Below are positions 9,242 to 46,622 of a DNA stretch of 64,000 nt, in pieces. The DNA is taken from contig CAYOAM010000001.1 in assembly GCA_964402035.1 (NCBI GenBank), positions 24,261 to 88,260 of the forward strand, read 5' to 3'. How positions within the stretch are numbered: the stretch's first letter is position 1; each line of letters starts with the position of its first letter. A model generated the notes under the pieces. It saw only the letters and a program-made list of their open reading frames with translations. It had not been told where the DNA came from and did not search any database. Source of the DNA: an uncultured Candidatus Saccharibacteria bacterium. GTDB lineage: Bacteria; Patescibacteriota; Minisyncoccia; Phycocordibacterales; UBA918. The translations under genes and the position numbers were made by a program.

Positions 9242-9464
9242 ATTGCGCATTCCGAAATCTCCAGCTGCTTCGTTGCTTTCCTCGCTCAAACACTCATCGA
9301 AAGGATTGCAGCATATGCTGCTGCCTCGTATCTTCGCTCGTCAGCGCCTTGCATCTGAAAATTTCTGAGATGCGCGTCGTTGTGGAATAGTTTGTGTCAA
9401 ACCGCCAGTGCAGTTGTGTACAGCGCTGGCGGTTTTTTAGTCTTCAAACGCGTATAATGTCCCT

Positions 9465-9995: not shown

Positions 9996-10000
9996 TTTCT

Positions 10001-11318: not shown

Positions 11319-11996
11319 ATGAAATGGATTATTATCTTTGCGGTCGTATTACACTTATTTTCAATTACTGTTGTAGTGCAGGCGCAGACATGGGGAGGGG
11401 CAAAACCAACGGTACAAGAATGGGGTGGGGCTCCGCTTGACCCGACATTAACCAATGAAAATAATGGTGGTGTATTGGGTGATATCAATCAGAACACACA
11501 GCCCGCTTCATATTCGGGTGGCGAAGGGTCACCTGGTGGTTATACTGGTGGTGAAGGTTCTCCATACGATTATGCAGGAGGAAAAACTAGTGCACCAACG
11601 ACCAAGACGGGTACGGTAGATGGGGGCGAAAAGCCCGGTACGGTCGACGGGGGAGATCTTCTGCGTCCCGGGGAAGATGGTGCTGGTTTTGGTCCTGCTG
11701 GTAGAGATGGTGGTGGCAACATAGGAGGCTCAATCTCACTCCAGAATCCTTTAAAGGCGACATCAATCCAGCAATTCTTTTTGATGATCATAGACATCAT
11801 GCTCGTCTTTGCGGTGCCGATCATCGTCTTCTTTCTCATCCTCGCCGGTTTCAAATACGTGACCGCGCGTGGCAATACGGAGCAAATAAAGCAGGCTACG
11901 ACTGCACTCACGTGGGCGCTCGTGGGAGGTGTGCTCATTTTGGGAGCAAAAATATTACTCGAAGTCATTCAAAATACTGTCGATGCGCTTCGCTAA
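11319..11996 (+). CDS. secreted Gly-rich protein with a C-terminal TrbC/VirB2-like two-helix pilin-type domain
   Basis: Signal peptide, a GG/GT low-complexity region, then hydrophobic helix, GNTEQ loop and second helix (TALTWALVGGVLILGA). Confidence 0.5.
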   Translation: MKWIIIFAVVLHLFSITVVVQAQTWGGAKPTVQEWGGAPLDPTLTNENNGGVLGDINQNTQPASYSGGEGSPGGYTGGEGSPYDYAGGKTSAPTTKTGTVDGGEKPGTVDGGDLLRPGEDGAGFGPAGRDGGGNIGGSISLQNPLKATSIQQFFLMIIDIMLVFAVPIIVFFLILAGFKYVTARGNTEQIKQATTALTWALVGGVLILGAKILLEVIQNTVDALR

Positions 11997-12321
11997 ACTC
12001 GCGCCGTATCTGTCATATGCTGGCGTTTGCAGCAGCTTTGTCATTTCTGTTTTTTTTCCACATGCTCTCTATGCGGCGACCTTTGCAAGTCTGGTAAACA
12101 GTTTTCTCGGAGTACTCGGTCTTATCATCCCCCTTATCTTTGCCCTCACATTTTTGGTCATCGTCTGGGGTGTAGTGCAGGCATGGATCCTGAATGCAGG
12201 TAATGCCGAAAAGGTGAGTGAAGGACAGATGATAGCACTCTGGGGCATTATTGGTCTTGTCGTCATGGCGGGCATGTGGGGTCTCATTGCGCTTGTACGC
12301 ACTTCGTTATTTAGTTTTTAG
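11983..12321 (+). CDS. TrbC/VirB2-like small two-TM protein (pilin-type)
   Basis: Signal peptide ending AxA. LIFALTFLVIVWGVVQAWILNAGNAEKVSEGQMIALWGIIGLVVMAGMWG. The ORF is open from 11929 but overlaps the upstream gene; the ATG at 11983 is the likely start. Confidence 0.5.
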   Translation: MRFAKLAPYLSYAGVCSSFVISVFFPHALYAATFASLVNSFLGVLGLIIPLIFALTFLVIVWGVVQAWILNAGNAEKVSEGQMIALWGIIGLVVMAGMWGLIALVRTSLFSF

Positions 12322-12419
12322 AACCCATGGGCCTGTACACAGCCAGTATGCTCAATATCTGCGCATTTGCTATACTGTACCTATCCATTTATTGGGGTAA
12401 TTATTGTTTAACTTCTTCT

Positions 12420-12785
12420 ATGTTAAAGAAAATTGGTTTTATCGGACTTTCATTTCTTCTTCCAGCATTCGCCTTCGCGCAGTCTCCGGCGGGTAATTTG
12501 GGCTACTTTGGTAACTTTGCAAATGAGGCAATCAAAGTAGTCAATAATATTTTAATTCCTCTTGTATTTGCACTAGCTTTTTTGGTGTTTGTGTGGGGGT
12601 TGCTAAAGTACTTTATTTTTGGGGGTGGTAATACAGAGAGTCAAGAGCAAGGAAAACAACTCATGATCTGGGGTGTTGTAGCGTTCGTGGTCATGGTGTC
12701 GCTTTGGGGTATCGTAAGTGTCATTAGTACCAGTCTCCAGATAGGAGGTGGTACGGTTAAGATTCCGGCACCTCTCACCAGATAA
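12420..12785 (+). CDS. TrbC/VirB2-like small two-TM protein (pilin-type)
   Basis: MLKKIGFIGLSFLLPAFAFA signal. LVFALAFLVFVWGLLKYFIFGGGNTESQEQGKQLMIWGVVAFVVMVSLWG. Confidence 0.5.
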   Translation: MLKKIGFIGLSFLLPAFAFAQSPAGNLGYFGNFANEAIKVVNNILIPLVFALAFLVFVWGLLKYFIFGGGNTESQEQGKQLMIWGVVAFVVMVSLWGIVSVISTSLQIGGGTVKIPAPLTR

Positions 12786-12844
12786 GGGTCTTTTCTACAT
12801 GATCGCTGTTTTTTGTTGGAGTCAACATTAATGGCTTTAGTGGT

Positions 12845-14350
12845 ATGCCTAGAAATAGTTCAGTCCTTATAAAAACTACTGCCGGTACAGTATTGGCGGT
12901 AGTTTTGCTATTCGACTTTTTGTTTGCAATACAGGTGCAAGCTGCGGTCAGTACTCGGGTTTCGCAAGTATCTTATTTGGACGGATATGCACAGGTTGGT
13001 GCGGTTGGTGCGTCTGATGAACAAAATAAAGTAGTAGGGAATACGCAAACGCAGAAAGGGGCTCAGGCTCTCGATCCTACACAGAAGACAAGCAATGCTA
13101 TCCCTGCAACAAACAACACTTCACCTGAAAGTGTTCCCGATATCTCAAACGGTTGGTCAGAGTTCTTTAGTAAGACTGCACCAGAAAACTTTGCTTCGGC
13201 TACGCCACAGGAGTCTTATCAGTATGATAATAATCAGAGACCAATAACTAATCCAAATAGTATCCCGCAACAAATAACTCCTCCTGCACAGAAGACCCCT
13301 GTATCAGACACGGTCGAAGATTCATATCAATATGGTGCAGCCAAAGAAGAGTATCAGTATGCGCCTGATGATCGGCAAGGTACCAAGCAGACAGGGGAAA
13401 ATTATGGGTACGCTAACGTGAATCCGTCGCCAAATACACAGGGTGTAACCAATAGCAGTAACAGTAATTTCGGCAGTAGGTATGCGGGTACATTCAATAG
13501 CGAGGATCTCAATTGGGGATTTGGAATCTTGGGAACAGTGATGCCTTTCGGTGGTCTTATTGGTTTAGGTGTGCGCGGTCTGATTGCTTCAGGAATTCCG
13601 GTTACCTATGATTGGGAATTAGCACCACCGCCTAAAGATCTTACGACAGACGATGAGGCCAATGGACTGTCGCGAAGTGGCTTTGATCCTGTGACGGGTA
13701 TGGCAACTGGTGAAAGAAGGGGTGATATATCAGTATCGAGCGCACCACTGGATCCTCCAAAAGATGATTTTGATGCACGTATGGATCGTGCAATGGCGGA
13801 GATTGCAGCAGATAAAGCAGCAGGCAAAGGAAATCCTCCTGGCGAACTTGACTCAACGCAGACGGGAGGGCTCATTGGAGGCATTGCTGGATTTTTTGAT
13901 GGTCTTAGTAAAAGCATCGGTGACCTATTTGGATTTGGAGAGGACGCACCAACATCGGGCGTATCTACGCCAGGTCAATCGACATCCGTAGAGGTCGGTG
14001 CGGTGAGTGGAGAGGCACCCCCATCGACTAACGGAGACCTTGAAACGAGTAGGCCAGGTCCAGGTACCAACAGCGCACCTTCGAGCAATGCCACTGCTCC
14101 AGATTATGGGCCCGCTTTGGGTCCATCACATGGTCCAGGTAGTCCAGCTGTTGAAGTACCATCAGCTCCAGGTGGAGCACCTCCGAGTGGTGGACTTGTT
14201 GATATTGATGAAAGCGGCATACCAGGTTCGTCGAATTTTTCTGGATTTAGCGGTTCGACTGAAATCGAGGGCGGTGATGTTGAGGTCGGTGGCGATGCAC
14301 CGGATGGCGGAGAAGGTGAGGGAGGGGATGGCAGCGATGGGGGAGAATAA
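12845..14350 (+). CDS. large secreted/surface low-complexity protein (501 aa)
   Basis: N-terminal signal/TM segment. Q/N/P/S-rich and Gly/Asp-rich regions, with an internal hydrophobic segment (GILGTVMPFGGLIGLGVRGLIASGIP). Embedded in the pilin-like cluster. Confidence 0.45.
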   Translation: MPRNSSVLIKTTAGTVLAVVLLFDFLFAIQVQAAVSTRVSQVSYLDGYAQVGAVGASDEQNKVVGNTQTQKGAQALDPTQKTSNAIPATNNTSPESVPDISNGWSEFFSKTAPENFASATPQESYQYDNNQRPITNPNSIPQQITPPAQKTPVSDTVEDSYQYGAAKEEYQYAPDDRQGTKQTGENYGYANVNPSPNTQGVTNSSNSNFGSRYAGTFNSEDLNWGFGILGTVMPFGGLIGLGVRGLIASGIPVTYDWELAPPPKDLTTDDEANGLSRSGFDPVTGMATGERRGDISVSSAPLDPPKDDFDARMDRAMAEIAADKAAGKGNPPGELDSTQTGGLIGGIAGFFDGLSKSIGDLFGFGEDAPTSGVSTPGQSTSVEVGAVSGEAPPSTNGDLETSRPGPGTNSAPSSNATAPDYGPALGPSHGPGSPAVEVPSAPGGAPPSGGLVDIDESGIPGSSNFSGFSGSTEIEGGDVEVGGDAPDGGEGEGGDGSDGGE

Positions 14351-14385
14351 GATGCGAGAGCTTTATATTGGTGTATTATAGAACT

Positions 14386-14862
14386 ATGGTTTTAAAACAT
14401 CTTGTGCTTCGAGTATCCGCTCTAGTAACGGTTATCGGAGTGCCGACTTTTGTATTTGCACAAGACCCCTCGTTTGGAGGAATAGGTCGTCTTATTAGTG
14501 ACGTACTTTCGCTAATAGAATGGTATCTCATTCCGCTAGTTTTCTCTCTCTCCTTTCTTCTTTTTTTGTGGGGTCTCTTTAATTTCTTTTTTGTAGGTGG
14601 AGGAAATGCGGAGTCACGAGAGGCGGGACGTCAGTTGATGATGTGGGGAATTGTAGCGTTTGTCGTTATGGTTTCTATATGGGGTATTGTTTCTGTAGTA
14701 GCCTATAGTTTTGGTTTTTCAGGGGGATATGTACCCCCATTGCCATCGATTCCAATGCCTGGTGGTGGGTCGGGAGGTGGTGGAGCCCCTATGCCACCAC
14801 CAGCTGCGCCACCTGTTTCAGGTGGCCCAACCGCAATGCCGTGGGAGCCGGGAATCTATTAA
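14386..14862 (+). CDS. TrbC/VirB2-like small two-TM protein with a Gly/Pro-rich tail
   Basis: Signal peptide. LVFSLSFLLFLWGLFNFFFVGGGNAESREAGRQLMMWGIVAFVVMVSIWG. The TTG at 14368 or the ATG at 14386 could be the start. Confidence 0.5.
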   Translation: MVLKHLVLRVSALVTVIGVPTFVFAQDPSFGGIGRLISDVLSLIEWYLIPLVFSLSFLLFLWGLFNFFFVGGGNAESREAGRQLMMWGIVAFVVMVSIWGIVSVVAYSFGFSGGYVPPLPSIPMPGGGSGGGGAPMPPPAAPPVSGGPTAMPWEPGIY

Positions 14863-14865
14863 TGT

Positions 14866-15153
14866 ATGATTGCATTCGCACAAGAACATATCGTGTACGC
14901 CCAGTCTTTTCTGGATAAGATAAAAGCTGTTATTCTCTATCCGCTCATCTCGCTTATGCTTGGTGTAGCTGTCGTCGTATTTCTCTGGGGGATTTTTGAA
15001 ATGGTGATGCACGCAGAAAATAGCGAAGCGCGAAGTACGGGTCGTACACATATGCTTGCAGGTATTATAGGGATCGTGGTCATGCTCTCTGCACTCACGC
15101 TACTGCGCATCGCTGCAAATACGTTTGGGGTTGAGGTGCCTTCAGGAAGTTAA
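14866..15153 (+). CDS. TrbC/VirB2-like small two-TM protein
   Basis: LMLGVAVVVFLWGIFEMVMHAENSEARSTGRTHMLAGIIGIVVMLSAL, the same helix / GN-E loop / helix pattern. Confidence 0.45.
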   Translation: MIAFAQEHIVYAQSFLDKIKAVILYPLISLMLGVAVVVFLWGIFEMVMHAENSEARSTGRTHMLAGIIGIVVMLSALTLLRIAANTFGVEVPSGS

Positions 15154-15178
15154 AAAACTACATAAAGAATAAGAAAAA

Positions 15179-15206
15179 ACCGGAAGCTGCATGCAGCTTC
15201 CGGTTT
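15179..15206. terminator. bidirectional Rho-independent terminator between convergent genes
   Basis: aaaaaccggaagctgc-atg-cagcttccggtttt: a GC-rich hairpin flanked by an A-run and a T-run. Confidence 0.7.
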
Positions 15207-15214
15207 TGAGTTCA

Positions 15215-15787
15215 CTACTTTTTTTTGCAGGTTCCTTCTACCCGCGGGTACAAGTTTACGTCCCCTGTGCCAACGCCGTGGAACTGGAAAAATCTTCCAG
15301 TCACCCCATCCTCGACCCAGGTCTTCATGTCATCCGAAACCAACACGATGGCTGATTTCGGCATGGCGTAATCCAGGCAGTTTGCCCGGGGTATTTCGTA
15401 GTACTTTTTGCTGAACATGTTATTTTTGTTCAGCGTTATTGTCGTCTTGCCAACCGGCAAAACGATTTTGGTTGTGGTGATGTCATCCCACCACCACCCC
15501 ACTGAACCAATTCCTCCTAGAAGAAGGAGGAGCAGGATCATCCACATGCCCAAGCCACCAGACTTGTGGCTGTCTCCATGCCCGGCGGTTTTCGCCGCCG
15601 GTGGGGGAGCTGCTGCCGCCGGCTGAGGCGTGGCGGGAACAGCTCCTGCGGCTGGTGGTTGTGGCGTTGGCGTGGAAGGTGTTGATCTTGCATTGCGTTT
15701 GGATAAACGCAATCCCCATACAATTAGACTCACAACAAAGATTGCTGTGATGAACCCAATCAGCTGCAAGTCTTCGAAGATTTCCAT
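15215..15787 (-). CDS. membrane protein with a Pro/Ala-rich linker (possible NfeD-like partner of the SPFH protein)
   Basis: N-terminal TM, a PTPQPPAAGAVPATPQPAAAAPPPA linker, a second TM, and a C-terminal beta-rich domain. It lies immediately downstream of the SPFH gene on the same strand. The NfeD assignment is inference. Confidence 0.35.
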   Translation of the reverse strand: MEIFEDLQLIGFITAIFVVSLIVWGLRLSKRNARSTPSTPTPQPPAAGAVPATPQPAAAAPPPAAKTAGHGDSHKSGGLGMWMILLLLLLGGIGSVGWWWDDITTTKIVLPVGKTTITLNKNNMFSKKYYEIPRANCLDYAMPKSAIVLVSDDMKTWVEDGVTGRFFQFHGVGTGDVNLYPRVEGTCKKK

Positions 15788-15798
15788 TGATCGCTCCC

Positions 15799-17160
15799 TT
15801 ACGTTTTGGAAGGCGGAATTGTCTTTGCAGCTTCCGCTATACCAAGAACAGTTCCTATGAGACCGTCAGGGCCTGGCGGTGTGATGATAACCTTGTTGTT
15901 GCCTCCCGCAACTTCTTGAGCGATCTGGGCAGCGAGAACGTCCTTACCAGTAACTTTTAAGACCGTCGCCATCTTCTGGAGGCCCTTAGCGCTTTCTTCA
16001 ATTAAGGCTCTTTTCGCGCCAGCTTTCGCGTTCCCAACTCGTGTTTCTTCGAATGCCTTAGCACGGGCAGCGTTTTTATCTGCTGCCATTTGTCCTTCAG
16101 ACTTCACGCGCGAAGCCATGCTTTCGATCTTTGCTTCAGCGGCCATTTGAAGTTTCTTATTGTAGTCATGTCCCGGGTTGAAGCGGGTGACCTGCGCGAA
16201 GTATATTTCAACACCAAGAGTCAGCGTTTGAAGTTGTACCTTGAGCGCGAGCCATTCTTCGATGAGCCCTTTGTGCTTCATGAGCTCATCGTACGTCAAC
16301 TTGCCGCCGATTTCGCCAAGGTAGCCCTCCATCTTGTCGTTGACTTGTCGGACTACTTCGAGTACCCGATCTGAGATCTTGGCACCCCCCTTGATCTTGT
16401 TGAGGAATTCATTTCGACGTTCACCAATAATTGGGTCTACGTGCCGATATAGATCCCAGAAGCGAGGTTTCGAGAGTCCAAGAGCAATCTGGGCCGAAGC
16501 CTCGATGTTGACTGCTTGAGCAGTGGCAGAGCCTTTCAGGTCTCCTGTGCACGTAAAGAAGTAAGGGTACTCTTGTTTGACGTCTATGACGATCAGCTTA
16601 CCATCTTTGTCTCTTGACTCCCATTGAATGTTGCCTGAGGCAGCAGGCAACTCTGCCTGAGCTCGTACGGTGGGTTCGCTTCTTTTTGTGAAAAGGAAAA
16701 CGGGAGCCCACTTTGGTCCATTGTCGAAAATGTACGCTGGCTTGCCGAAGAATTCAATTCCGGCAATTTCGTCATTCTCGACCTTGAAGAATCCTGCCAG
16801 TAAATAGGCGAATACAGGTATGGGGGCAAACCACCAGGGATTGATGACGATGCTCTTGCCCATGCTCGACGGGAGCATGAAGTACATCGCGACGAAGTAT
16901 GCGACGATCAAGATTCCCACAACTGCGAATGATGCTCTGGTGTAAATCCACTCACTGACACCTGGTGTTGTCTTTAGGAACTCCACTCGATCGGAATCAA
17001 GCTTTTTCCTCAGCGCTCCGATGTGTAGACGGAGCCAAGATGCAACCGCGGCGTCACCTTTATCCCTATCAGGGAAGTCGGGAACGGTAAGTTGGCCTTG
17101 CTGCGTCTGTGACGAGGTCGGCGCCGCAGAGGGAATTTGATTGGAACTCGATGTAATCAT
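15799..17160 (-). CDS. SPFH/band-7 (flotillin-like) domain membrane protein
   Basis: N-terminal TM hairpin, then a band-7-like core and an Ala/Lys/Glu-rich coiled-coil tail (AAEAKIESMASRVKSEGQMAADKNAARAKAFEETR) typical of flotillin/YqiK. Confidence 0.55.
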   Translation of the reverse strand: MITSSSNQIPSAAPTSSQTQQGQLTVPDFPDRDKGDAAVASWLRLHIGALRKKLDSDRVEFLKTTPGVSEWIYTRASFAVVGILIVAYFVAMYFMLPSSMGKSIVINPWWFAPIPVFAYLLAGFFKVENDEIAGIEFFGKPAYIFDNGPKWAPVFLFTKRSEPTVRAQAELPAASGNIQWESRDKDGKLIVIDVKQEYPYFFTCTGDLKGSATAQAVNIEASAQIALGLSKPRFWDLYRHVDPIIGERRNEFLNKIKGGAKISDRVLEVVRQVNDKMEGYLGEIGGKLTYDELMKHKGLIEEWLALKVQLQTLTLGVEIYFAQVTRFNPGHDYNKKLQMAAEAKIESMASRVKSEGQMAADKNAARAKAFEETRVGNAKAGAKRALIEESAKGLQKMATVLKVTGKDVLAAQIAQEVAGGNNKVIITPPGPDGLIGTVLGIAEAAKTIPPSKT

Positions 17161-17440
17161 GATATGAGGCCCTCCTAAGGCCTATTTGTCGAAAAACGTG
17201 TGATCGGGCGAATGCCGCAATCTTCGCTAACAATTATAGCATATTTAGTATAGAAAGTCAAGTAAAAAAGGGCTGTACAGTGGCTCTGTTGAGCCGTGTA
17301 TTTTAATTTTTGAGTCGATCTGATTTTTTACTATATTGTACGTTAGAAGGAGCACTTGCTTTTAGGTCATATATAGCACAAGATTCGGTGAGATGTAGAG
17401 GTGCGTTGTGTATTCCGCTGACTATTGAAAGGGAATTTCG

Positions 17441-18229
17441 ATGATATCTGCGCGTATACGTGAGGTCGCGATGCGTCGCCTCGCCAGTTTCACACTTCCA
17501 TTTTCTCGTTCGTCTCGCTTACTGCATCCGTCACTCGACCGTGCATACAGGGAGTATCTTGGAAAACTTCAAATACTGCCACGGGGTCCAGTGTGGCCGA
17601 TCGTCGTTTTCATGATTGGACTCCCTGGTTCAAAACGTGTCATTGTTGCTGATGAAATTGCGAAAGCTGCAGGTTACACATTTATCGTTGCAAATACGAT
17701 ACGTGACATTCTCTTGAGTGCTAAAGAAAGTGAGTCCCATCTCGATGAGCTGCTTTGGAGGGCAATAGAGCATGTGCTTGCTTCAGGAGGCAATGTCGTT
17801 GTTGATATGGACGCAATAGCAACATCGAGACGTGCACGTGCCTGGGCGGTGGCGAAAAAGAATGGTGCGCATGTCGAGTTTGTCCGGACGCATTGTAGCT
17901 TTTTTCAGATGATGCTTAATCTGCAGCAAGCCGCAACGGACAAGAATGTACATCCGGCATGGCGTGCAGAAGTGCTCGCGCATGGCATGGAGGATACAGA
18001 CGAAAGAAGGGCTGCAGCTGCACAAGCTCGAGTGGTACAAACGGCACATCTGCATTATCGTACAAGTAAACCAGATGGCGTTCTCGACGAAGTGCGTCCG
18101 TTGCCATTTGAACTACTGATGGATGTCCTACGGGTGACCCAACGAGCGCTGGAGATGCCGCGAAAAGAATCGCACAAGCATTGGCCGAGTTCAAAGAGAC
18201 ATAGCAATATGTCGCTTTTTTTATTTTAA
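17441..18229 (+). CDS. hypothetical protein with a degenerate P-loop (IGLPGSKR)
   Basis: 262 aa with a possible P-loop kinase-like fold. The start may be the M at 17471. The gene ends in a repeat-rich region. Confidence 0.35.
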   Translation: MISARIREVAMRRLASFTLPFSRSSRLLHPSLDRAYREYLGKLQILPRGPVWPIVVFMIGLPGSKRVIVADEIAKAAGYTFIVANTIRDILLSAKESESHLDELLWRAIEHVLASGGNVVVDMDAIATSRRARAWAVAKKNGAHVEFVRTHCSFFQMMLNLQQAATDKNVHPAWRAEVLAHGMEDTDERRAAAAQARVVQTAHLHYRTSKPDGVLDEVRPLPFELLMDVLRVTQRALEMPRKESHKHWPSSKRHSNMSLFLF

Positions 18230-37954: not shown

Positions 37955-37971
37955 TCTTTTGTGCGCCGGGT
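37952..37971 (-). repeat. displaced 20-nt copy of the tRNA-Tyr 3' end (putative att-site half)
   Basis: gcgccgggtaggatttgaa is identical to 43970-43989 (the 3' end of intact tRNA-Tyr), in direct orientation, 6.0 kb away. Confidence 0.75.
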
Positions 37972-38175
37972 AGGATTTGAAGTTTACTACTTCAGTACAC
38001 CTCTGAATAGCACCCCATGCTATTCAGCTACTTTTCTGCGCAAAGCTTGAAAAGGTAGCTCGCAAGGTTTTCAAATCCATGCTCCCAACACAAAAGACGT
38101 CCACAAGGGACGCCTTTTCTATTGGGTGCTCCGAACTGGAGGCGATTCGGATTCTATGCCTATAGTCTTCTAAAC

Positions 38176-38204
38176 TTGACACGAATTATAAAACATGATA
38201 TAAT
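38176..38204 (+). promoter_or_regulatory. sigma70-like promoter TTGACA-N17-TATAAT
   Basis: ttgaca at 38176-38181, a 17-nt spacer, tataat at 38199-38204. ggaga SD and ATG (38253) follow. Confidence 0.55.
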
Positions 38205-38252
38205 ATAAGAAGGTAAAGTTCTTCAATTCAAACCCCAAAACGGAGACGTCAA

Positions 38253-38477
38253 ATGGCAAATACAAACCTCAATGATCTCGGCGTATTTCTGAATACTGAT
38301 ATCGGCTTATGGCTAGTCGTCGCAGCAACTTCGTTAGTCATGGACCGATTTTTTTCCTCCATTTCCAAAAAAAATGACGAAGAGGAAATGGAAAGGGTTC
38401 GAGATATGCGCAAGTACGGACTAACAGTTGTCGGCGGATTCGGGGCAGCCGTGCTGATTAAGCAACTGTTCATGTAA
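38253..38477 (+). CDS. small two-TM membrane protein (74 aa)
   Basis: Consensus promoter and SD upstream. Two hydrophobic helices. Confidence 0.45.
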   Translation: MANTNLNDLGVFLNTDIGLWLVVAATSLVMDRFFSSISKKNDEEEMERVRDMRKYGLTVVGGFGAAVLIKQLFM

Positions 38478-38704
38478 TTGGTAGGGCTCTATACGTAGAG
38501 CTCTAGACTTCCATGGACGAAGGCGGTGCAGCAATGCATCGCCTTTTCTTTTGCAAAAAAATTAAAGCTATCTCACAACATAAAAGGCGTCTCATGTGAT
38601 GCTTTTTATGTTGGGCGCACCGAACTGGAGGCGGTTCGGACTTTTTGTGTTGCAAATACCTTGTCTTAGAGTTGAATAGTTAAAGTGGTATAATGGCCTG
38701 TTGT

Positions 38705-39541
38705 ATGGAAAGCATTCATTTTCTAAACGGTAAATTTGTTTCGGAGAAGGAGCTTCTCATTTCTCCGCGTGATCTTGGGTATTCTCGGGGATATGCAGTG
38801 TTTGACTTTCTAAGAACGTACCAGCAGAGACCTTTTCTGCTTCAGAAGCATATAGACCGACTATTCCGCTCAGCTGAGACTCTAGCACTCACAATCCCAT
38901 GGTCTAAAGAACAGGTTTGTGAATGGGTTTCTGAAACGCTCGAAGCGAACAAAAGCATCAATACTGAAAACGTAGCGCGAATAATTATCTCTGGCGGCTC
39001 GTCAACCACACTTGTTCCACCGCGCCTTCCGACTATAGTAATTACAGTTGATGCCGTAATTGGTTGCCCCCCGGAAGAATACAAACACGGAGTCGAGATA
39101 CGTTTAGTCGAATTTCAGCGATATCGTCCGGAAGCAAAGACAAATAACTATATCGAAGCAGTTATGACACTTAAAGCACTCGCCACACAAAACATTCATG
39201 AGGTCATATATTATTCAGATGGCATGGTACGGGAAGGTACCCGATCAAATATTTTTGCTCTCATAAATGGAAGACTTCTTACTCCTAAGACTCTGGTCTT
39301 GGGAGGGATAACTCGCGAAGCATTGCTTGATATTCTAAAGCTGTCAGTACCATTAGAGGTTGAAGATTTCTCAGTTGCCGCCCTGCGTTCAGCATCTGAA
39401 GTATTTATTACGGCGACTGGCAAAGAAGTGATGCCAGTTACTAAGATAGATGGCGTTATCGTTGGAGACGGCAAAGTCGGTTCTTTAACTAATGAGGTAA
39501 TGAGACAACATCAATCCTTTATCGACTCAGGTCTTTGGTGA
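38705..39541 (+). CDS. class IV PLP aminotransferase (branched-chain / D-amino-acid aminotransferase family)
   Basis: FLNGKFV...GYAVFDFLRTY...RLFRSAETLAL...IISGGSS fits the fold-type IV pattern. An extended -10 (tggtataat) lies at 38682-38690. The start is 38693 or 38705. Confidence 0.6.
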   Translation: MESIHFLNGKFVSEKELLISPRDLGYSRGYAVFDFLRTYQQRPFLLQKHIDRLFRSAETLALTIPWSKEQVCEWVSETLEANKSINTENVARIIISGGSSTTLVPPRLPTIVITVDAVIGCPPEEYKHGVEIRLVEFQRYRPEAKTNNYIEAVMTLKALATQNIHEVIYYSDGMVREGTRSNIFALINGRLLTPKTLVLGGITREALLDILKLSVPLEVEDFSVAALRSASEVFITATGKEVMPVTKIDGVIVGDGKVGSLTNEVMRQHQSFIDSGLW

Positions 39542-39544
39542 TAT

Positions 39545-40384
39545 TTAACTCCAAAGAGACAGGGTGTCATCCTTGAGAGTCATGAAAGAATTAAAAGTGA
39601 GTCGGATTTGGCTAGAACGAATCGAGTCTATTTGGTGAAAGTTTCGAGTTCGAAAGATAATCAAGTCACCAGAAGCGGGGAAGACTCTGGTTGGTTTCTC
39701 GTTTTCAAGGAAGGTCGGATCAAATCCATTAGGACCTTTTTCAAGGATGTCTTTATTATAGACTTCGTCTTCAGAAACCCATGGATGATTATAAATATTA
39801 AGTTCCCCCCCGGCATTTGGCATTTGGAGGTATAACACTAAACCGAATTGTTCCTCAGACTCTGCTACTTTCCATCCAGGGAGCTGGACGGGGGCATAAT
39901 CAAAGTGCAGGGTACTCTTGGCACCCATAGCACGAATAAGTCCAGTAAAGTACTGAGCTTGATTCATGCTCGGTTCCTGCGCTATTGTTATTTTGTAATC
40001 TGCGGAAAACGTACCAATTATTTTTTGGATTGGATCTGGCACTCCGTGAAATATCTTCTCTAGAGTAGCGGTAGCCTCGGCGACACGTGAGAAATATAGT
40101 GCTTTGCCGTTCTCTTTGGAGTGATATTCTGTTGCGCTTATTCCAATGCGGCCCTGTTTATTTTCTGAATTTACATACCAAGCGATGCTTTGTCTATCGA
40201 TGTTCTTATCGATGACAGCGAGTTCAACTGGATGATAAAAATTCGTCACCTTAACGGCAGCAATCTGGTTTGAGGACAATAGTGGTAGCATTTTACGTGG
40301 CTCAAAGTTCTCCCCGTATGCAGTCGTCTTAATCTCCCAGTCGTTATTGTATTGCATTGTTGTGTATCCTATCACGGAATGCAT
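39545..40384 (-). CDS. putative 2-oxoglutarate/Fe(II)-dependent oxygenase
   Basis: Candidate H-x-D...H facial triad (LHFDY ... NIYNHPW) and downstream R..S (FHQIDSIRSS). Weak; based on the motif only. Confidence 0.35.
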   Translation of the reverse strand: MHSVIGYTTMQYNNDWEIKTTAYGENFEPRKMLPLLSSNQIAAVKVTNFYHPVELAVIDKNIDRQSIAWYVNSENKQGRIGISATEYHSKENGKALYFSRVAEATATLEKIFHGVPDPIQKIIGTFSADYKITIAQEPSMNQAQYFTGLIRAMGAKSTLHFDYAPVQLPGWKVAESEEQFGLVLYLQMPNAGGELNIYNHPWVSEDEVYNKDILEKGPNGFDPTFLENEKPTRVFPASGDLIIFRTRNFHQIDSIRSSQIRLTFNSFMTLKDDTLSLWS

Positions 40385-40413
40385 TTAGCTTGCCGCATGG
40401 TACTATCTTCGTC

Positions 40414-41868
40414 ATGGATCGGGTGAATATCTTGGTTATAGGAGTGGGTCCTCATGCCCAGAGGATTTATGTCCCGAAACTTGCAGGACTTGCCAGTAAG
40501 GGTGTACCTGTGCACCTGGCAGGTGTTGTTGACCTAAAGAGGCAACAGGGAGAGATCGACCAATACTTAAAGGAGAAAGGATATTCCCCAAAAACACTGT
40601 ATCTGGATTCATTTGATGAGACGACAGGAATGCCTTCGAGTATTCTAGCCATACTCAATGCTTTTGTTAAAGATTTGAATATACAAGGTGTTGTTATTTC
40701 AACGGTACCAACCGTCCATAAAGTTTATGGGCAGTGGGCTTTGTCACACGGCTTACACATTCTCATGGATAAGCCAATTTCTATGAGGAAAGGCATCAGC
40801 ACTGATGTATCTCAGGCTGCTGCTTTGATAAAAGACTATGAAGATTTGTTAGTGTTATACCAAGAGAAACAGAGTACTCACAATACAGCCTTCTCAATTA
40901 ATGTACAGCGCAGATACGAATACGGGTTTGATCTTGTAAAACAACTAATTGCAGAAACAAAGGAACGGTTTAATATGCCCGTTACTTCTATTCAGGCAAT
41001 GCACGCGGATGGTACGTGGATGTTTCCCAAAGAAGTACTGACTCAAGAATCCCACTGCCTTTTCGATGGCTACGGGAAAGTTGCCCATAGCGGATATCAC
41101 ATATTTGATATGGTATGGCAACTATACAATGCAGGGCTTGTTGAAGAAAAGAAACCTGATTCGCTGGAAATCTTGTCTTCACCACTAACACCAGCTGGTC
41201 TCAACATTGATTTGTGTGAAGACGATTATCGACATTATTTTGGGTCGGAGTATGACGCAACCACCTTTTCTGAGGCAGAATTCCAAGAAAAGGTTAAGAA
41301 CTATGGTGAATCGGATTCGTTTAATATTATCAGGCACTTAAAAAACGGCGAGAATATTTGTAATGTTTCCATTAATTTACTCCACAGAAGCTTCTCTGGA
41401 CGCTCATGGGCAGTGCCAAACACAGACAGGTATAAGGGAAATGGCCGGATCAAACATCAACATTTTATAATCCAGCAGGGGCCATTTCAGTGCATTCAGA
41501 TTCACAACTATCAATCCAAAGATTCTCACGATATCGATAACTCCCAAGAGTTTGATATCGGAGGAAACAACCATTTTGATATATATGTTTTCCGCAACAA
41601 AGGAATGTTTGGATCAGGTGAGTCTTTTTTTAAGATCTCTGCCAAGGATCTTGAAGACAAAAAACGAGAGAGCGGTCTAATCGTTGAGAATGCAAAAGAA
41701 CGAGTCATTATTGAGTTTATAGATTTTATGCTAGGTAGGATTAATAAAAGTGAGTTAAAATCAAATATTGATACACACAGCATACCCGTTAAGATGATGA
41801 GTGGAGTGTGTCAATCGGGCGCGCGTCTTCGGAAGGGAGATAATCCTCTAATACACATTTCCATATGA
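40414..41868 (+). CDS. NAD(P)-binding oxidoreductase (Gfo/Idh/MocA-like N-terminus) with a long C-terminal extension
   Basis: ILVIGVGPHAQRIYVPKLAG Rossmann GxGxxA motif at the N-terminus. 484 aa. The ORF is open from 40357 and overlaps the convergent gene; the ATG at 40414 is the likely start. Confidence 0.4.
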   Translation: MDRVNILVIGVGPHAQRIYVPKLAGLASKGVPVHLAGVVDLKRQQGEIDQYLKEKGYSPKTLYLDSFDETTGMPSSILAILNAFVKDLNIQGVVISTVPTVHKVYGQWALSHGLHILMDKPISMRKGISTDVSQAAALIKDYEDLLVLYQEKQSTHNTAFSINVQRRYEYGFDLVKQLIAETKERFNMPVTSIQAMHADGTWMFPKEVLTQESHCLFDGYGKVAHSGYHIFDMVWQLYNAGLVEEKKPDSLEILSSPLTPAGLNIDLCEDDYRHYFGSEYDATTFSEAEFQEKVKNYGESDSFNIIRHLKNGENICNVSINLLHRSFSGRSWAVPNTDRYKGNGRIKHQHFIIQQGPFQCIQIHNYQSKDSHDIDNSQEFDIGGNNHFDIYVFRNKGMFGSGESFFKISAKDLEDKKRESGLIVENAKERVIIEFIDFMLGRINKSELKSNIDTHSIPVKMMSGVCQSGARLRKGDNPLIHISI

Positions 41869-42491
41869 TAGGCTCAATTTATTTAATCGGAGGTGGTGAA
41901 ATCAGAAAGGGTGAAACTGTAGAAATTGACAATGAGTTAAAAGAAATTTGTCCCGCAAATTCAACCTTTGTTTTTTTTGGTACAGCGGCAGGGGATAGTC
42001 CAGAGTATATTCATACAATTGAGTCAATCTTTAAAAGCAATTTTAAAATCATCGCACCAACAGAAAAGGATGGTCCTGAATTTGCACTGTCTGCTATAAA
42101 ATCCGCATCAATCATTTATCTTGGTGGTGGCACGACCAAATTACTGTTAGATCTTTTTGAAAAGTGGGAGCTTGTCCAACCACTTCGTGAAGCATTAAAT
42201 CGAGATGTTCATCTTGTAGGAATGAGTGCGGGTGCACTAGCTCTTTCTACTTGGTATCTTCACGAAGAAGGAGATTCTATGGAATTACGACGCGGATGGG
42301 GTTTTGCTTCAGTCTGTACACTTGTACACGCGCAAAAAGACTCTTCTGCTCGGGCACAAATAATCTGGAAAGGTAATAAAGATGCGCATGCAACCCCTCT
42401 TATTGCAATTGGTGAAGGTGCCGCATGGCGTATAAGCTCTCACGATACTCAGAAAGTTGGAAGTGGTGAAATAAAGTATATCCAGCACTAG
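41865..42491 (+). CDS. peptidase S51 family (dipeptidase E / cyanophycinase-like)
   Basis: IYLIGGGE, IYLGGGTTKLLLDLFEKWEL and HLVGMSAGALA (the nucleophile Ser in GxSAG) match the S51 pattern. Confidence 0.55.
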   Translation: MIGSIYLIGGGEIRKGETVEIDNELKEICPANSTFVFFGTAAGDSPEYIHTIESIFKSNFKIIAPTEKDGPEFALSAIKSASIIYLGGGTTKLLLDLFEKWELVQPLREALNRDVHLVGMSAGALALSTWYLHEEGDSMELRRGWGFASVCTLVHAQKDSSARAQIIWKGNKDAHATPLIAIGEGAAWRISSHDTQKVGSGEIKYIQH

Positions 42492-42636
42492 TTTATTGAA
42501 AGCAAAGGCAACTTCAGTGAAGTATGTACTGTGGTAGTCATCCTGGCCTGACAATATCGACAGGAGACAGTATTTGTGGTATTAAAATCAAGTGTTTTGT
42601 TTTTTGTCATCGTAATTAAACTTATGGAGGTATCGC

Positions 42637-43758
42637 GTGATCACTACTCTGAAAGAGAAGTTCCTCGTTTATCATCGAGTTCGGGGATTTGGTATCTATG
42701 AATCCTTTCCATTGGTGATCAGTGATCCTACGATTCTGTTTACCAATGCCACCATAACCCCTTTCAAACCCATGTTCATGGGAGTGGAGAAGAGGGTAAA
42801 CTATGCCCTCGTGCAGAAATGTTTGCGTTTGGGTGGTGCGAGTGGGAATCTTGATACTCCACGAACAAACCCAAACTTCACTTCCTTGTTCGAAATGCTT
42901 GGAAGTGGATTGTTTGATGTCAGTCAAGATGTTGCCGTTGCTTATTTCGTTGAAGTGTTAGCTTCACTGGGTCTTCGGAGAGAAAATCTTTTGTTTACCA
43001 CCCTTGCCAACCTTGGCTTTGAACTAGCCTTGGAGCGAGCAGGGATTCGTTTGCAGCAAATCAGGGTCTTCGCTGATGCAAAGGATATCGTGCATGAATG
43101 GAGTTTTGGAGAAGGTGACCTGCATGGGTGTGGAGTAGTAGCTTGGCATGTCCCAGAAGGCTACCAGAAATCCACGTCCGACAGTGTCTTACAGGAACTT
43201 TCCCACTTCGTTCAAATCGGAAGGATAGTTCACATCGTTGGTGTTGCACGCGGGGCATCGGTGGAGACGTTCCCGTACGCTGCATACGACTTGGGGCTCG
43301 GATTGAGTCGGGTCGAACTGGCTCTCAGTGGGAATTGTGAGGTCTTCCTGCGTCCGTGGAGGGTGTTCGCAGCCCATTTTCAGGCAGTCATTGCCGGGTT
43401 GGGTAAGACGGATGCACACTACCTCGCCAATCTCTACCGGATAGTCGTTGAGCTTGTTGGTGAAGGGCTCTTGCCCGGAACAAAGAAGCAAGCCTATGCT
43501 CTCAGAAAGGTGATTCGATTGCTTATCGAGGAGATTTGGATGAAGTCAGGTACGCTCGTGGATATACCCACCGTGCTGACTGCTTCTGTCAGTACATCTC
43601 CTTCCCCAGATCTTCTCATAAGCATTTTTTCTCAAGAGGAGAAGGCTTTACGAGCAGTACTTTCTGTTGCTGCAAAAAAGCAGAGAGAGCATCCTGACAT
43701 GAGTCTAGAGGAGCTGCGTTCGACGTTCGGAATTCGTCCAAGCCTGCTCAGGCTCTAA
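42637..43758 (+). CDS. alanyl-tRNA synthetase catalytic-core homolog (373 aa; class II AlaRS aminoacylation domain only)
   Basis: DPTILFTNATITPFKPMF, QKCLRLGGASGNLD and SLFEMLGSGLFD align with the E. coli AlaRS segments DPTLLFTNAGMNQFKDVF, QRCVRAGGKHNDLE and TFFEMLGNFSFGDY. GLGLSRVELAL aligns with motif 3 (GMGLERIAAVL). The editing and C-terminal domains are absent. Confidence 0.65.
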   Translation: MITTLKEKFLVYHRVRGFGIYESFPLVISDPTILFTNATITPFKPMFMGVEKRVNYALVQKCLRLGGASGNLDTPRTNPNFTSLFEMLGSGLFDVSQDVAVAYFVEVLASLGLRRENLLFTTLANLGFELALERAGIRLQQIRVFADAKDIVHEWSFGEGDLHGCGVVAWHVPEGYQKSTSDSVLQELSHFVQIGRIVHIVGVARGASVETFPYAAYDLGLGLSRVELALSGNCEVFLRPWRVFAAHFQAVIAGLGKTDAHYLANLYRIVVELVGEGLLPGTKKQAYALRKVIRLLIEEIWMKSGTLVDIPTVLTASVSTSPSPDLLISIFSQEEKALRAVLSVAAKKQREHPDMSLEELRSTFGIRPSLLRL

Positions 43759-43924
43759 AGGATTGGTGTAAACCTAGACTCACTTTGAGTAAATGGCCCG
43801 GGATCACGAAAGTGTTTTTTGGGCCATATTTTTTTATATAGTGGATTTCAGGTGCCAAATTTAGATGATCTAATAAACAATAAATAAAAAATTAGACCTG
43901 AACCAAGATGTCTAACTCAATTGC

Positions 43925-43969
43925 GCCTCTACGAAAATAACCCCATCAACTGGGGTTATTTTCAAAAAG
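43925..43969 (-). terminator. hairpin following tRNA-Tyr (gaaaataacccc-atcaact-ggggttattttc)
   Basis: It differs from the cacaaaag-type hairpin that follows other tRNAs. It lies inside the putative island end. Confidence 0.5.
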
Positions 43970-44053
43970 TGCGCCGGGTAGGATTTGAACCTACGAAGCC
44001 CTGAGGGCGACAGATTTACAGTCTGTTGCGATTGACCACTCCGCCACCGACGC
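43970..44053 (-). tRNA. tRNA-Tyr (anticodon GUA), type II with a long variable arm
   Basis: Manual cloverleaf. Acceptor GCGTCGG/CCGGCGC (one G-U pair), anticodon stem ACAGA/TCTGT with loop CTGTAAA, variable arm hairpin GCCC-TCA-GGGC, T-arm GTAGGTTCAAATCCTAC. Confidence 0.75.
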
Positions 44054-44261: not shown

Positions 44262-45089
44262 ATGATGTTCCGGATTTTATACAGCAGCACAATTTTATTT
44301 TTTGTTCCTGTTGCATATGCTGCTGCAAAGATTGTTCCTAATTGCCCAGTAAATGGCTGTCGAGCTTGCGATCTTGTGATATTGGGCAACAACCTTATAA
44401 CATTTCTTATTGGCATTGGGATTTTTGTTGCTGTGATCTCTATCGCCATCACAGCATTTCAAACAATAATAAGTGGTGAAAGTGGGGCACACGCATTGGG
44501 GAGCACAGCTACGAATATCGTCATCGGGATTATTATCATGCTTGCAGGGTGGCTGATTGTGGATACACTTTTGAAATTGTTGGTTGCTCCGGGCAAACTT
44601 GGACCGTGGAATGAAATTGAGTGTATTGAGAATCCTGGTATTGAGGAAGATCCAACTGTGGCGACAAAGCCGGGACGTATCGCATATGTTGCCGGTGGCG
44701 GTAAGGGATCGGGCGCACAATGTGGCGCAGGAAACACGGCTTGTAGTCCTGAGGCCTTGCAGGCACTTGGTATGACTCCTGCACAAGCCAATACGATGTC
44801 CTGTATTGCTATGACAGAGAGTGGTGGTTCCCCAAACGCCGTCAATAAAAATGGGGGAGCGTGCGGCACGTTCCAAATTCTTCCAAGTAATTGGAGAAAT
44901 GCTTCGCTTCATAAGGGGAGCTGTAATTCTGATGTCTCCTGTAATGACGCAACATGCAATGCGCAGGCGGCACAGTCGCTCATGGCTGGTCGCATCAAGG
45001 CAGGTAAGTCTGCGTATGGAGACTGGACGTGCCCGGGATGCAATAATAAAGCGCAGGCATGTGTCGATAAATACAATCCGGGAGGATAA
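44262..45089 (+). CDS. fusion protein: pilin-like N-terminus (CxxC + two TM helices) and C-terminal lytic-transglycosylase (SLT)-like domain
   Basis: Signal peptide, NCPVNGCRACDLVILGNNLITFL, two hydrophobic helices, then MTESGGSPNAVNKNGGACGTFQILPSNW (the SLT catalytic E-S ... GAxGxxQ pattern). Cys-rich tail. Confidence 0.5.
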   Translation: MMFRILYSSTILFFVPVAYAAAKIVPNCPVNGCRACDLVILGNNLITFLIGIGIFVAVISIAITAFQTIISGESGAHALGSTATNIVIGIIIMLAGWLIVDTLLKLLVAPGKLGPWNEIECIENPGIEEDPTVATKPGRIAYVAGGGKGSGAQCGAGNTACSPEALQALGMTPAQANTMSCIAMTESGGSPNAVNKNGGACGTFQILPSNWRNASLHKGSCNSDVSCNDATCNAQAAQSLMAGRIKAGKSAYGDWTCPGCNNKAQACVDKYNPGG

Positions 45090-45650: not shown

Positions 45651-46499
45651 ATGAAGAAATTTTTATTACACAGTTTGGTGCTGCTAGTCCTGCTTTTCCC
45701 AGCGATCAGCGTCGGACAGGAGGACAGTCTTTTTGTCTGCGAGGGTTGGGATTGTCAGGCATGTGATCTTGTTGAACTGGGAAATACGATCATCAATTTT
45801 GTCATCATGATGAGCGTTATTATTGCGACAATTCTTTTAGCGTATGCTGGCTTCCTCATTGTTACAGCACAAGGGGATATGGGCAAAATAAAGCATGCGC
45901 GTGAGATGTTCACGAATATAGTGATCGGTATCATAATCGTGCTTTCCGGGTGGCTCATAGTGAACACTGTCATGAAGCTGCTTGTGGGTGATGATCTACT
46001 GGGCGATGGCCCATGGTATGAAATCGAGTGTGTCGAACAGCCGGCTATCGTCCCTCCATCAACCGTCGCTGATGGTACGACGGTCGTGCCGGGAGGGCCG
46101 TCAGTTCCAGCGCCGTCCGCAGGATGCCCGAACTGCGCAACCATCGTCGCAGATGGTGTAACCTGCAAGGCAGGAGTTAATTGTACCGTTGATGCAGAGT
46201 ATGCAAAAAACTTAGGCCTCCTTGGCAAGGATTTTCCGCTGATCGTGACCGAAGGGTTTCCTCCAAAGGCAAATCATAAGGCCGCATGCCATCGAAATGG
46301 AACATGTCTCGATGTGGTCTTTTCTGATCGCAATTTTAGCGATCAAAACAAGATTAACAATTTTATTTCTGCTGCGGATAGGGCAGGCTATAGGGCGGTG
46401 TATGAACCCAACAAGGGACAGGCATGTCCCCCTGGTATGGGGAAGTCATGTCAGGCAAATGTTGCCAACGGGACTCATTTCTCACTGTATAAGAAATAA
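45651..46499 (+). CDS. fusion protein: pilin-like N-terminus (CxxC + two TM helices) and C-terminal putative peptidase M15-like (cell-wall hydrolase) domain
   Basis: VCEGWDCQACDLVELGNTIINFV, two helices, then IVTEGFPPKANHKAACHRNGTCLDVVF (H...H..G...D, reminiscent of the M15/VanY zinc site). The C-terminal assignment is weak. Confidence 0.4.
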   Translation: MKKFLLHSLVLLVLLFPAISVGQEDSLFVCEGWDCQACDLVELGNTIINFVIMMSVIIATILLAYAGFLIVTAQGDMGKIKHAREMFTNIVIGIIIVLSGWLIVNTVMKLLVGDDLLGDGPWYEIECVEQPAIVPPSTVADGTTVVPGGPSVPAPSAGCPNCATIVADGVTCKAGVNCTVDAEYAKNLGLLGKDFPLIVTEGFPPKANHKAACHRNGTCLDVVFSDRNFSDQNKINNFISAADRAGYRAVYEPNKGQACPPGMGKSCQANVANGTHFSLYKK

Positions 46500-46550: not shown

Positions 46551-46622
46551 GGGCGATTAGTTTAGTGGTAGAACATAGGTCTCCAAAACCTACGGTGGGG
46601 GTTCGATTCCCTCATCGCCCGC
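46551..46622 (+). tRNA. tRNA-Trp (anticodon CCA)
   Basis: Manual cloverleaf. Acceptor GGGCGAT/ATCGCCC, anticodon stem TAGGT/ACCTA with loop CTCCAAA, T-loop TTCGATT, discriminator G. Confidence 0.75.

Follow-up and report, generated by a model that had tools for sequence, protein, structure and literature searches.

Introduction

The nearest characterized relative in kind of the protein described here is AcmF, a truncated homolog of alanyl-tRNA synthetase (AlaRS) that has neither the editing nor the C-Ala domain of the full-length enzyme and whose gene is part of a small-molecule cluster (Zheng et al., 2024; review in PMC12945691). AcmF also lacks the Asp-plus-Asn pair that reads the G3:U70 base pair, uses the old adenylate pocket for its ligand, and is accompanied by a hydrolase, AcmE, which reverses the alanylation, and by a dedicated full-length AlaRS partner, AcmD. 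Here, we describe a 373-residue AlaRS-like protein encoded at positions 42637 to 43758 of a 64,000-nucleotide stretch of DNA from an uncultured Candidatus Saccharibacteria bacterium (GenBank assembly GCA_964402035.1, contig CAYOAM010000001.1, positions 24,261 to 88,260 of the forward strand); this stretch is hereafter the window, and positions are given within it. In sequence and structure its nearest characterized relative is the ordinary AlaRS catalytic fragment, and it shares with AcmF the truncation, the loss of both the editing domain and C-Ala and the absence of the G3:U70 readers. The gene lies in a mobile five-gene cassette, and the protein is most likely a paralog of an aminoacyl-tRNA synthetase (aaRS) core recruited to small-molecule chemistry, in unusual hosts and with a new set of partners and a new active-site pattern. 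Just as AcmF is accompanied by the hydrolase AcmE, the cassette has an S51-family peptidase. The partner enzymes and host phylum of AcmF are otherwise entirely different, and no counterpart of AcmD is found among the five genes of the cassette.

Other described systems resemble parts of the locus. The mini-AlaRS of Tupanvirus (PMC10036535) and the split AlaRS of Nanoarchaeum equitans also lack C-terminal modules on the same polypeptide; these, however, are translation enzymes close to ordinary AlaRS, whereas the protein studied here belongs to a long-branch paralogous clade with a re-modelled active site and resides in a mobile cassette. The SerRS-like carrier-protein ligases, AsnA and EpmA/PoxA are stand-alone class II cores that use ATP for activation and a non-tRNA acceptor, but they derive from SerRS, AspRS or LysRS and not from AlaRS, and no carrier protein is encoded in the cassette. 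The S51 peptidase MccG was shown in 2022 to be an immunity enzyme that cleaves toxic aminoacyl-nucleotides at their carboxamide bond by hydrolysis, as the S66 peptidase MccF does (PMC9239234). Here, the AlaRS-like gene adjoins one for an S51 peptidase whose Ser/His/acid triad is intact, and the sister clades are associated with S66 peptidases and with MccE1/MccD-like proteins; the acid of the S51 triad appears to be a Glu, as in PepE, whereas MccG clade V has an Asp, and, unlike microcin C clusters, the cassette has neither an MccA peptide nor an MccB/ThiF protein. Finally, puromycin-type aminonucleosides are made by a dehydrogenase, an aminotransferase and then amino acid coupling (Pur10, Pur4 and Pur6, respectively, in the puromycin/cystocin logic; PMC11641026). 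A dehydrogenase, an aminotransferase and a candidate coupling enzyme are also found in the cassette, but the families differ (class IV versus sugar aminotransferase, AlaRS-like versus Pur6) and Nudix, phosphatase and acetyltransferase genes are missing, the likeness being one of logic alone.

A divergent homolog of the AlaRS catalytic fragment

The open reading frame (42637-43758, forward strand) starts with a GTG codon preceded by a GGAGG Shine-Dalgarno sequence at 42627-42631. The public gene call (P0001, 328 residues) begins at an internal ATG, but with about 100 homologs the alignment starts at residue 1 of the 373-residue form. The translation contains the motifs DPTILFTNATITPF, QKCLRLGG, FEMLG and GLGLSRVELAL, the last with GLSR in place of GLER; all of these, including the Glu-to-Ser change, had been quoted in a prediction made earlier for this DNA (hereafter, the original prediction), which proposed a stand-alone paralog of the AlaRS catalytic core. 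The protein scores above the gathering threshold of Pfam family PF01411 (tRNA-synt_2c; E 2.2e-22, 79.7 bits against a cut-off of 30.3), residues 5-295 matching positions 2-307 of the 552-position profile, and its top sequence match in the PDB is E. coli AlaRS 1-441 (3hxu; E 7.6e-18). A profile of the family matched AlaRS chains exclusively in the PDB (9e-40). An AlphaFold2 model built from 40 homologs (pLDDT 91.3, pTM 0.88) shows the AlaRS catalytic fold, with 3hxu again as the top Foldseek match (E 6.6e-21, TMq 0.76). As these matches far exceed chance, the homology to AlaRS is real, and the proposed relationship to the AlaRS aminoacylation domain is borne out: the 373-residue protein is a true but very divergent homolog of the AlaRS catalytic fragment. 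The divergence is seen in an identity of about 22-27% to canonical AlaRS catalytic fragments (E. coli 1-441, 3hxu; Methylomonas, 9jc7) that have the same fold (TMq 0.76-0.77), and in a score of 69.3 bits against the alaS equivalog TIGR00344, whose cut-off is 457. Decay of the gene was considered and rejected: 103 positions are invariant in 12 diverged copies, about 100 full-length homologs exist and the fold is predicted with high confidence.

The polypeptide comprises the aminoacylation domain, the Mid1 helices and the first strand of Mid2, and ends at about residue 412 of the E. coli enzyme. Most of Mid2, the editing domain (tRNA_SAD) and C-Ala/DHHA1 are absent, as had been foreseen, but the original prediction placed the end too early in stating that the protein stops before the tRNA-recognition part, as the Mid1 helices and a conserved T-F/Y-G strand are kept. 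A tblastn search with full-length E. coli AlaRS found no full-length alaS, editing half or C-Ala half in the 64-kb window, in agreement with the earlier remark that the window has no full-length alaS; nor did it find a match to the C-terminal half in the related loci of about 20 kb (L001-L008).

Active-site and tRNA-reading residues

Residues were compared in an alignment of 101 family members, 85 of which are of the cassette type, with E. coli AlaRS; the numbering is that of the mature E. coli protein. Over residues 7-317 the E. coli reference sequence used is consistent with the 3hxu alignment, and D400 falls at its published index. The alignment used for the tree misplaces the W170 column for the cassette clade, and W170 was therefore taken from the PDB and 101-member alignments. 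Invariant in the 85 cassette-type members are R69 (R64 in the protein of the window), F90 (F85), W170 (W155), V214 (V198), D235 (D218) and G237 (G220), and the motif-3 Arg (R225) is an Arg in 81 and a Lys in four. In a co-crystal study of AlaRS with ATP and alanine, the adenine is contacted by a Phe and by the motif-3 Arg, the alpha-phosphate by the motif-2 Arg, the methyl group of alanine by a Val and its alpha-amino group by an Asp (PMC12143591, 2025). These contacts are kept in the cassette-type members, as are W170 and G237, so that seven positions are held in common with the canonical fragment: the motif-2 Arg, the adenine-stacking Phe, the motif-3 Arg, W170, V214, D235 and G237. Unlike canonical AlaRS, however, the protein has lost the K73-H74-N75-D76 loop of motif 2, E183, E209 (Gln), W211 (Gly), N212 (Arg) and the motif-3 Glu, and the full set of AlaRS active-site residues is not present.

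The residues that read G3:U70 are also altered. D400 (UniProt numbering) is replaced by Ala, Ser or Gly in 85/85 close members (S362 here), and the position of N303 (UniProt numbering), the other reader, is occupied by Asn, Lys, Ser or Thr among the members (T282 here); the N303-plus-D400 pair of alaS is thus absent from the protein of the window. The protein retains the AlaRS fold, with an intact adenylate pocket and a small amino acid pocket, but not the tRNA-reading residues. The truncation at about residue 412 and the replacement of D400 in all 85 members argue against charging of tRNAAla. In the E. coli deletion series of Jasin, Regan and Schimmel, fragments of about 368-385 residues reportedly make the adenylate, whereas tRNA charging is said to require up to 461.

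AcmF was compared by its published description. It is described as lacking most of the residues for ATP and alanine, with the substitutions N219Q and D232E; here, D235 is kept, N212 is an Arg and the Phe/Arg/Arg contacts are kept, whereas the K-H-N-D loop, E183 and E209 are lost.

A rare clade found almost only in CPR genomes

A search of 1.84 billion representative proteins returned about 25 short clusters (367-414 residues) of the truncated kind, separated by a score gap from the full-length AlaRS below them; the short clusters examined bear a diagnostic N-A-T-I-T-P signature. In a neighbour-joining tree every short protein with the signature falls in one clade, on a long branch from full-length AlaRS. 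The clade is rare, with about 100 proteins, almost only from metagenome-derived genomes of the Candidate Phyla Radiation (CPR). The family was found in 12 of 185,579 species (one genome per species scanned), a lower bound, since the scan relied on exact peptide patterns. The metagenome-assembled genomes that bear the cassette belong to Saccharimonadales, Nomurabacteria, Levyibacteriota and other Patescibacteria-type lineages; a few non-CPR labels are doubtful, as the loci have a GC content of 0.37-0.52. Plasmid and phage collections yielded only ordinary alaS genes, with at most 30% identity over full-length matches. One of the plasmids, NZ_CP108456.1 of Streptomyces sp. NBC_01267 (L028, 61934-68423), carries a full-length alaS directly after LOG-family, phosphoribosyltransferase, HAD hydrolase and Asp/Asn beta-hydroxylase-like genes. 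The set, which might represent a cluster of the nucleoside type that brings along an AlaRS, has parallels in four similar plasmids.

The five-gene cassette

In the window the AlaRS-like gene is the last of five, after genes for an aminotransferase, an oxygenase, a dehydrogenase and an S51 peptidase, and all five are found together at 10/11 close GTDB loci. The order is not fixed: in one Nomurabacteria genome it is S51 peptidase, AlaRS-like protein, aminotransferase, oxygenase, dehydrogenase, and in one cassette genome the block is inverted and lacks the S51 gene. The five proteins diverge in step (46-71% identity), with invariant catalytic motifs.

The first gene (38693-39541, forward strand; public start 38705) codes for a class IV pyridoxal phosphate (PLP)-dependent aminotransferase of the fold shared by branched-chain (BCAT) and D-amino-acid (DAAT) aminotransferases (Pfam Aminotran_4, E 9e-43). 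Its top PDB matches are BCAT and D-amino-acid aminotransferases, and the motif of the catalytic Lys, AKTxNY, is invariant in 12 cassette copies. The second (39545-40384, reverse strand, with a probable start at 40357) codes for a WelO5-family Fe(II)/2-oxoglutarate (2OG) oxygenase (Pfam WelO5, E 8e-21). Its iron motif reads H-F-D where the aligned PDB halogenase has HVG, and HFDYA and RNFHQ are invariant; a halogenase was considered and rejected, the H-x-D motif being of the hydroxylase type. The third gene (40414-41868, forward strand; the longest open reading frame starts from a TTG at 40357) codes for a 484-residue NAD(P) dehydrogenase of the Gfo/Idh/MocA type, with the GFO_IDH_MocA N-terminal domain of Pfam and the invariant motifs GxGxHA, DKP and SGYHxxD; it belongs to a larger family (689 matches). 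The Foldseek neighbours of its AlphaFold2 model (pLDDT 86.8) are dehydrogenases of sugar or cyclitol C-OH groups, 8tdi, 5yap, DgpA and GenD2, the last of which prepares a ketone for transamination. The oxygenase and dehydrogenase genes diverge from a spacer of about 56 bp (40357-40414), an arrangement kept in nearly all cassette copies. The fourth gene (41865-42491, forward strand), whose start overlaps the dehydrogenase stop by 4 bp, codes for a serine peptidase of the S51 family, which comprises PepE, cyanophycinase and MccG (Pfam Peptidase_S51, E 5e-20; top PDB match the cyanophycinase-like exopeptidase 6nqc). The Ser-His-acid triad is intact, GxSAGA, VHA and GE being invariant in 11 copies.

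No gene for a phosphopantetheine carrier (PP-binding) is found in the cassette at any locus, which argues against a carrier-protein ligase. A carrier protein or precursor peptide encoded elsewhere on the island was considered and rejected: the only candidate, an open reading frame for 74 residues (see below), matches no Pfam family and lacks a conserved counterpart at the other cassette loci. An Rfam scan revealed no upstream T-box or other riboswitch that would have pointed to the amino acid, returning only the tRNA and two sub-threshold chance matches. Additional genes occur in some versions of the cassette: a 220-residue open reading frame with a weak, sub-threshold YqcI/YcgG match lies between the S51 and AlaRS-like genes at L006 (9326-9997) and L013 (6569-7231), and a gene for an FAD-dependent monooxygenase lies just downstream at L004 (11192-12457). 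These look like variable tailoring genes, as found in biosynthetic clusters.

A mobile island at a tRNA gene

A gene for tRNA-Tyr(GTA) lies 211 bp past the AlaRS-like gene (43969-44053, reverse strand; detected by ARAGORN, and by the Rfam tRNA model with 61 bits). The 3'-terminal 21 nucleotides of the tRNA (GTGCGCCGGGTAGGATTTGAA; 43969-43989, the right att-like repeat) recur as a perfect copy at 37961-37981 on the forward strand (the left att-like repeat), an exact direct repeat 6008 bp from the tRNA copy. The repeat pair delimits an island of 5,987 bp (37982-43968), and the statement in the original prediction that the gene lies on an island thus acquires exact bounds. The island has a GC content of 0.41-0.43, against 0.45-0.48 in the surroundings, and holds only the cassette, the 74-residue open reading frame and a 55-nucleotide repeat; no integrase gene is present. 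The cassette borders on tRNA genes in other genomes as well (those for His, Asn, Ser and Gln), and at L009 a 5.9-kb stretch with the cassette and tRNA-His is exactly duplicated (5325-11238 and 11577-17490) with a period of 6,252 bp, reaching the contig end; the duplication may reflect a tandem island or a circular form, or may have arisen in assembly. The repeats of the tRNA end, the tRNA-adjacent positions elsewhere and the duplication at L009 together indicate that the cassette acts as a mobile unit.

At the left end of the island, the two copies of the 55-nucleotide repeat (38104-38158 and 38593-38647; 78% identity) contain a GC hairpin; between them lie a promoter that matches the sigma-70 consensus at 12/12 positions and has an extended -10 TG (38176-38204), and the 74-residue open reading frame, whose product is hydrophobic (38253-38477). 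Beyond the island, a three-gene block bracketed by the tRNA-Tyr gene and a tRNA-Trp gene (46551-46622) includes genes for two paralogous secreted or membrane proteins (44262-45089 and 45651-46499), each with an N-terminal Cys-rich CxACDLVxLGN motif and a transmembrane segment; the protein encoded at 44262-45089 carries an SLT_3 lytic transglycosylase domain.

Sister clades and related clusters

A sister subclade of the truncated family retains N212 and E209 and has its own conserved cassette, found on five contigs (L020, 3462-9732; L021-L024). This second cassette codes for an S66 (MccF-like) peptidase, an Orn/Arg-type PLP decarboxylase, a methyltransferase, two dCTP-deaminase-like proteins, another methyltransferase and the AlaRS-like protein. 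The decarboxylase and methyltransferase resemble the MccE1/MccD aminopropylation pair (PMC9239234), and the whole, which has neither MccA nor MccB, looks like the decoration and immunity genes of a microcin-C-type cluster. Locus L008 (1-19400) encodes a distant member of the truncated clade back to back with a 425-residue AlaRS-like protein that largely keeps the canonical residues, with two gaps at K73-H74, together with a 343-residue core of the AspRS/LysRS type, an S66 peptidase, an AdoMet decarboxylase, a methyltransferase, a ThiF protein and a double GNAT protein; three truncated aaRS cores are encoded in this microcin-C-like set.

Orthologs of the oxygenase and dehydrogenase of the cassette occur apart from it in other bacteria. 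At L026 (3188-16227; also L027), the WelO5-like (49% identity) and Gfo-like (51%) genes have a class I LysRS gene immediately upstream, and the cluster also encodes an 824-residue class II LysRS-like protein, an LPG_synthase_C aminoacyl-tRNA-transferase domain, a 2-hydroxyacid dehydrogenase, a pyruvoyl-dependent Arg decarboxylase, a Nudix protein and an ABC exporter; the L026 protein is listed in 91 blocks of the collection. These LysRS-linked clusters show that the oxygenase/dehydrogenase pair recurs with aminoacylating enzymes.

Discussion

As the AlaRS-like gene is locked in a five-enzyme cassette across CPR lineages in spite of a rearranged gene order, we consider it likely that the protein has a small-molecule, non-translational role in aminoacyl transfer, of the natural-product type. 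The original prediction had listed such activities as alternatives; the conserved cassette favours the non-translational part of that proposal, and the lack of a carrier protein in the cassette speaks against its carrier-protein ligase. As to the donor, either an adenylate made with ATP or Ala-tRNA, we propose only tentatively that the protein is the ATP-dependent coupling enzyme of the mobile cassette. In the scheme that we infer, in which each catalytic step, the order of the steps, the amino acid, the acceptor and the part played by the S51 peptidase are putative, the 2OG hydroxylase, the Gfo-type dehydrogenase and the class IV aminotransferase would convert a C-H or C-OH position of the acceptor to an amine, the acceptor being sugar-, cyclitol- or nucleoside-like, or an amino acid. 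The adenylate pocket of the AlaRS-like protein (R64, F85, R225) and its small amino acid pocket (W155, V198, D218, G220) would activate an alanine-sized amino acid with ATP, and the aminoacyl group would be passed to the acceptor amine, rather than to tRNA, giving a stable aminoacyl amide. The S51 serine peptidase may hydrolyse the same amide, for self-protection, activation or turnover, as MccG does with aminoacyl-nucleotides. The E209Q and N212R pair may re-tool the phosphate/linker site: in HisRS, Arg259 is said to place a guanidinium where a metal ligand would be, and the pair could act likewise. The ATP-dependent version is slightly favoured because the ATP and alanine contacts are kept, because the truncation matches fragments competent for adenylate formation and because E209Q/N212R could replace a metal ligand.

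Several observations weigh against this proposal. The K73-H74-N75-D76 loop, E183, E209, W211 and N212, unchanged in almost all of about 15 full-length AlaRS sampled, are altered: W211 is replaced by Gly, E209 is a Gln in 82/85 and N212 an Arg in 85/85 cassette-type members. If Mg2+ is bound by E183 and E209, the capacity for activation with ATP may have been lost. Basic residues of the Mid1 helices are conserved and even added (K283, K/R284, R290, K291, R294), which could mean that RNA binding persists. By our reading of the alignment, the aminotransferase retains the BCAT-type Arg, the usual binder of an alpha-carboxylate, so that amino acid chemistry fits better than sugar amination. The S51 gene is missing at L011; the loci compared share no conserved exporter, regulator or carrier protein alongside the cassette; and neither PADLOC, with only a generic 2OG match, nor Rfam gave a functional hint.

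The same active-site changes enter into a possible though doubtful alternative, judged nearly as likely as the ATP-dependent version, that the protein works as AcmF does, with Ala-tRNAAla from the housekeeping AlaRS as donor and the amine of an adenosine-like acceptor, bound in the old AMP pocket, as the recipient of the alanyl group; the product, just as doubtfully, might be an alanyl-adenylate mimic that the S51 peptidase could cleave. AcmF, the only characterized truncated AlaRS-like enzyme, uses the motif-2 Arg and the equivalents of E209, N212 and D235 (PMC12945691). The K-H-N-D loop and E183 are gone from the clade, E209 and N212 also from the cassette subclade, and the Asp-plus-Asn readers are absent, as in AcmF; moreover, the Mid1 helix keeps and gains basic residues, the pairing at L008 with a 425-residue, canonical-like AlaRS recalls AcmD/AcmF, and the LysRS-linked cluster employs an aminoacyl-tRNA transferase domain. 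However, where AcmF has N-to-Q and D-to-E changes the present family has an Arg and an invariant D235, the ATP and alanine contacts (PMC12143591) are kept, binding of tRNA may be weak with most of Mid2 missing, and no dedicated AlaRS gene stands beside the five-gene cassette. It is improbable that the protein is a mini-synthetase charging tRNAAla or some other tRNA, be it with alanine or with a non-canonical small amino acid that the cassette would supply. It is true that the Tupanvirus enzyme, without editing and C-Ala domains, can charge both tRNA and microhelices although it lacks the canonical readers of G3:U70 (PMC10036535), that the adenylate and alanine pockets are retained and that R290, K291 and R294 (R310, R311 and R314 of E. 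coli) are conserved; but the viral enzyme clusters with the AlaRS of its host, whereas a long branch and a gap in the scores set the present clade apart from all full-length AlaRS; the protein also lacks the K-H-N-D loop, E183, E209 and N212, stops before most of Mid2 and has in its cassette no transferase able to use a special aminoacyl-tRNA.

Mobility beside tRNA genes, the retention of a ligand pocket in a protein that has lost residues of true AlaRS, and the finding that most MccG homologs are stand-alone resistance genes (PMC9239234) would suit a resistance island, in which the AlaRS-like protein would act as a decoy or sponge, or as an editing-type hydrolase, for an AlaRS-directed aminoacyl-adenylate mimic of other microbes and the S51 peptidase would destroy the toxin. 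Three co-inherited redox and transaminase enzymes with intact motifs are, however, hard to explain by resistance alone, and the accessory tailoring genes vary as they do in biosynthetic clusters; we regard a resistance island as quite improbable. The original prediction had also raised the N-terminal half of a split housekeeping AlaRS, like that of N. equitans, with the C-terminal half encoded elsewhere, and the 64-kb window indeed lacks a full-length alaS. This explanation has become extremely improbable. alaS (TIGR00344) is a near-universal marker gene of bacteria; the present family occurs in just 12/185,579 species genomes, scattered across several CPR lineages, and scores 69 bits against the 457-bit equivalog cut-off. 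In addition, the gene is carried by a 6-kb island that was acquired horizontally and has att-like repeats and a lower GC content; it sits in the enzyme cassette at all close loci, has lost D400 and varies at N303, and no open reading frame for an editing or C-Ala half is found in the window or in the loci of about 20 kb.

The preferred reading, a non-translational role in small-molecule chemistry, may be extended to a product, though we think the extension unlikely to hold in full: an AlaRS-derived enzyme, its phosphate site re-tooled by Arg for Asn and Gln for Glu, would directly build a peptide-free aminoacyl-nucleoside, either an alanyl-adenylate mimic or a puromycin-like aminoacyl-aminonucleoside, with the S51 peptidase as immunity enzyme, and the sister clades with S66, MccD-like and MccE-like proteins would make related aminoacyl-nucleotides, together forming an undescribed class of translation-targeting antimetabolites.

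The clade differs from AcmF in its active-site solution, its partner enzymes and its host group, and the label 'alanyl-tRNA synthetase' that such genes carry (JGI names) is misleading for annotators. If the coupling role holds, the family would offer a compact, 373-residue aminoacyl-coupling enzyme for biocatalysis. CPR bacteria, or Patescibacteria, have tiny genomes and are rarely credited with specialized metabolism. By joining an aaRS core to a peptidase of the MccG type, the mobile cassette would suggest that these episymbionts engage in chemical warfare, or in self-protection, with translation as the target; and, if the antimetabolite reading is true, truncated aaRS cores in ultra-small symbionts would build translation-targeting compounds, carried on a tRNA-targeting island of about 6 kb without an integrase of its own.

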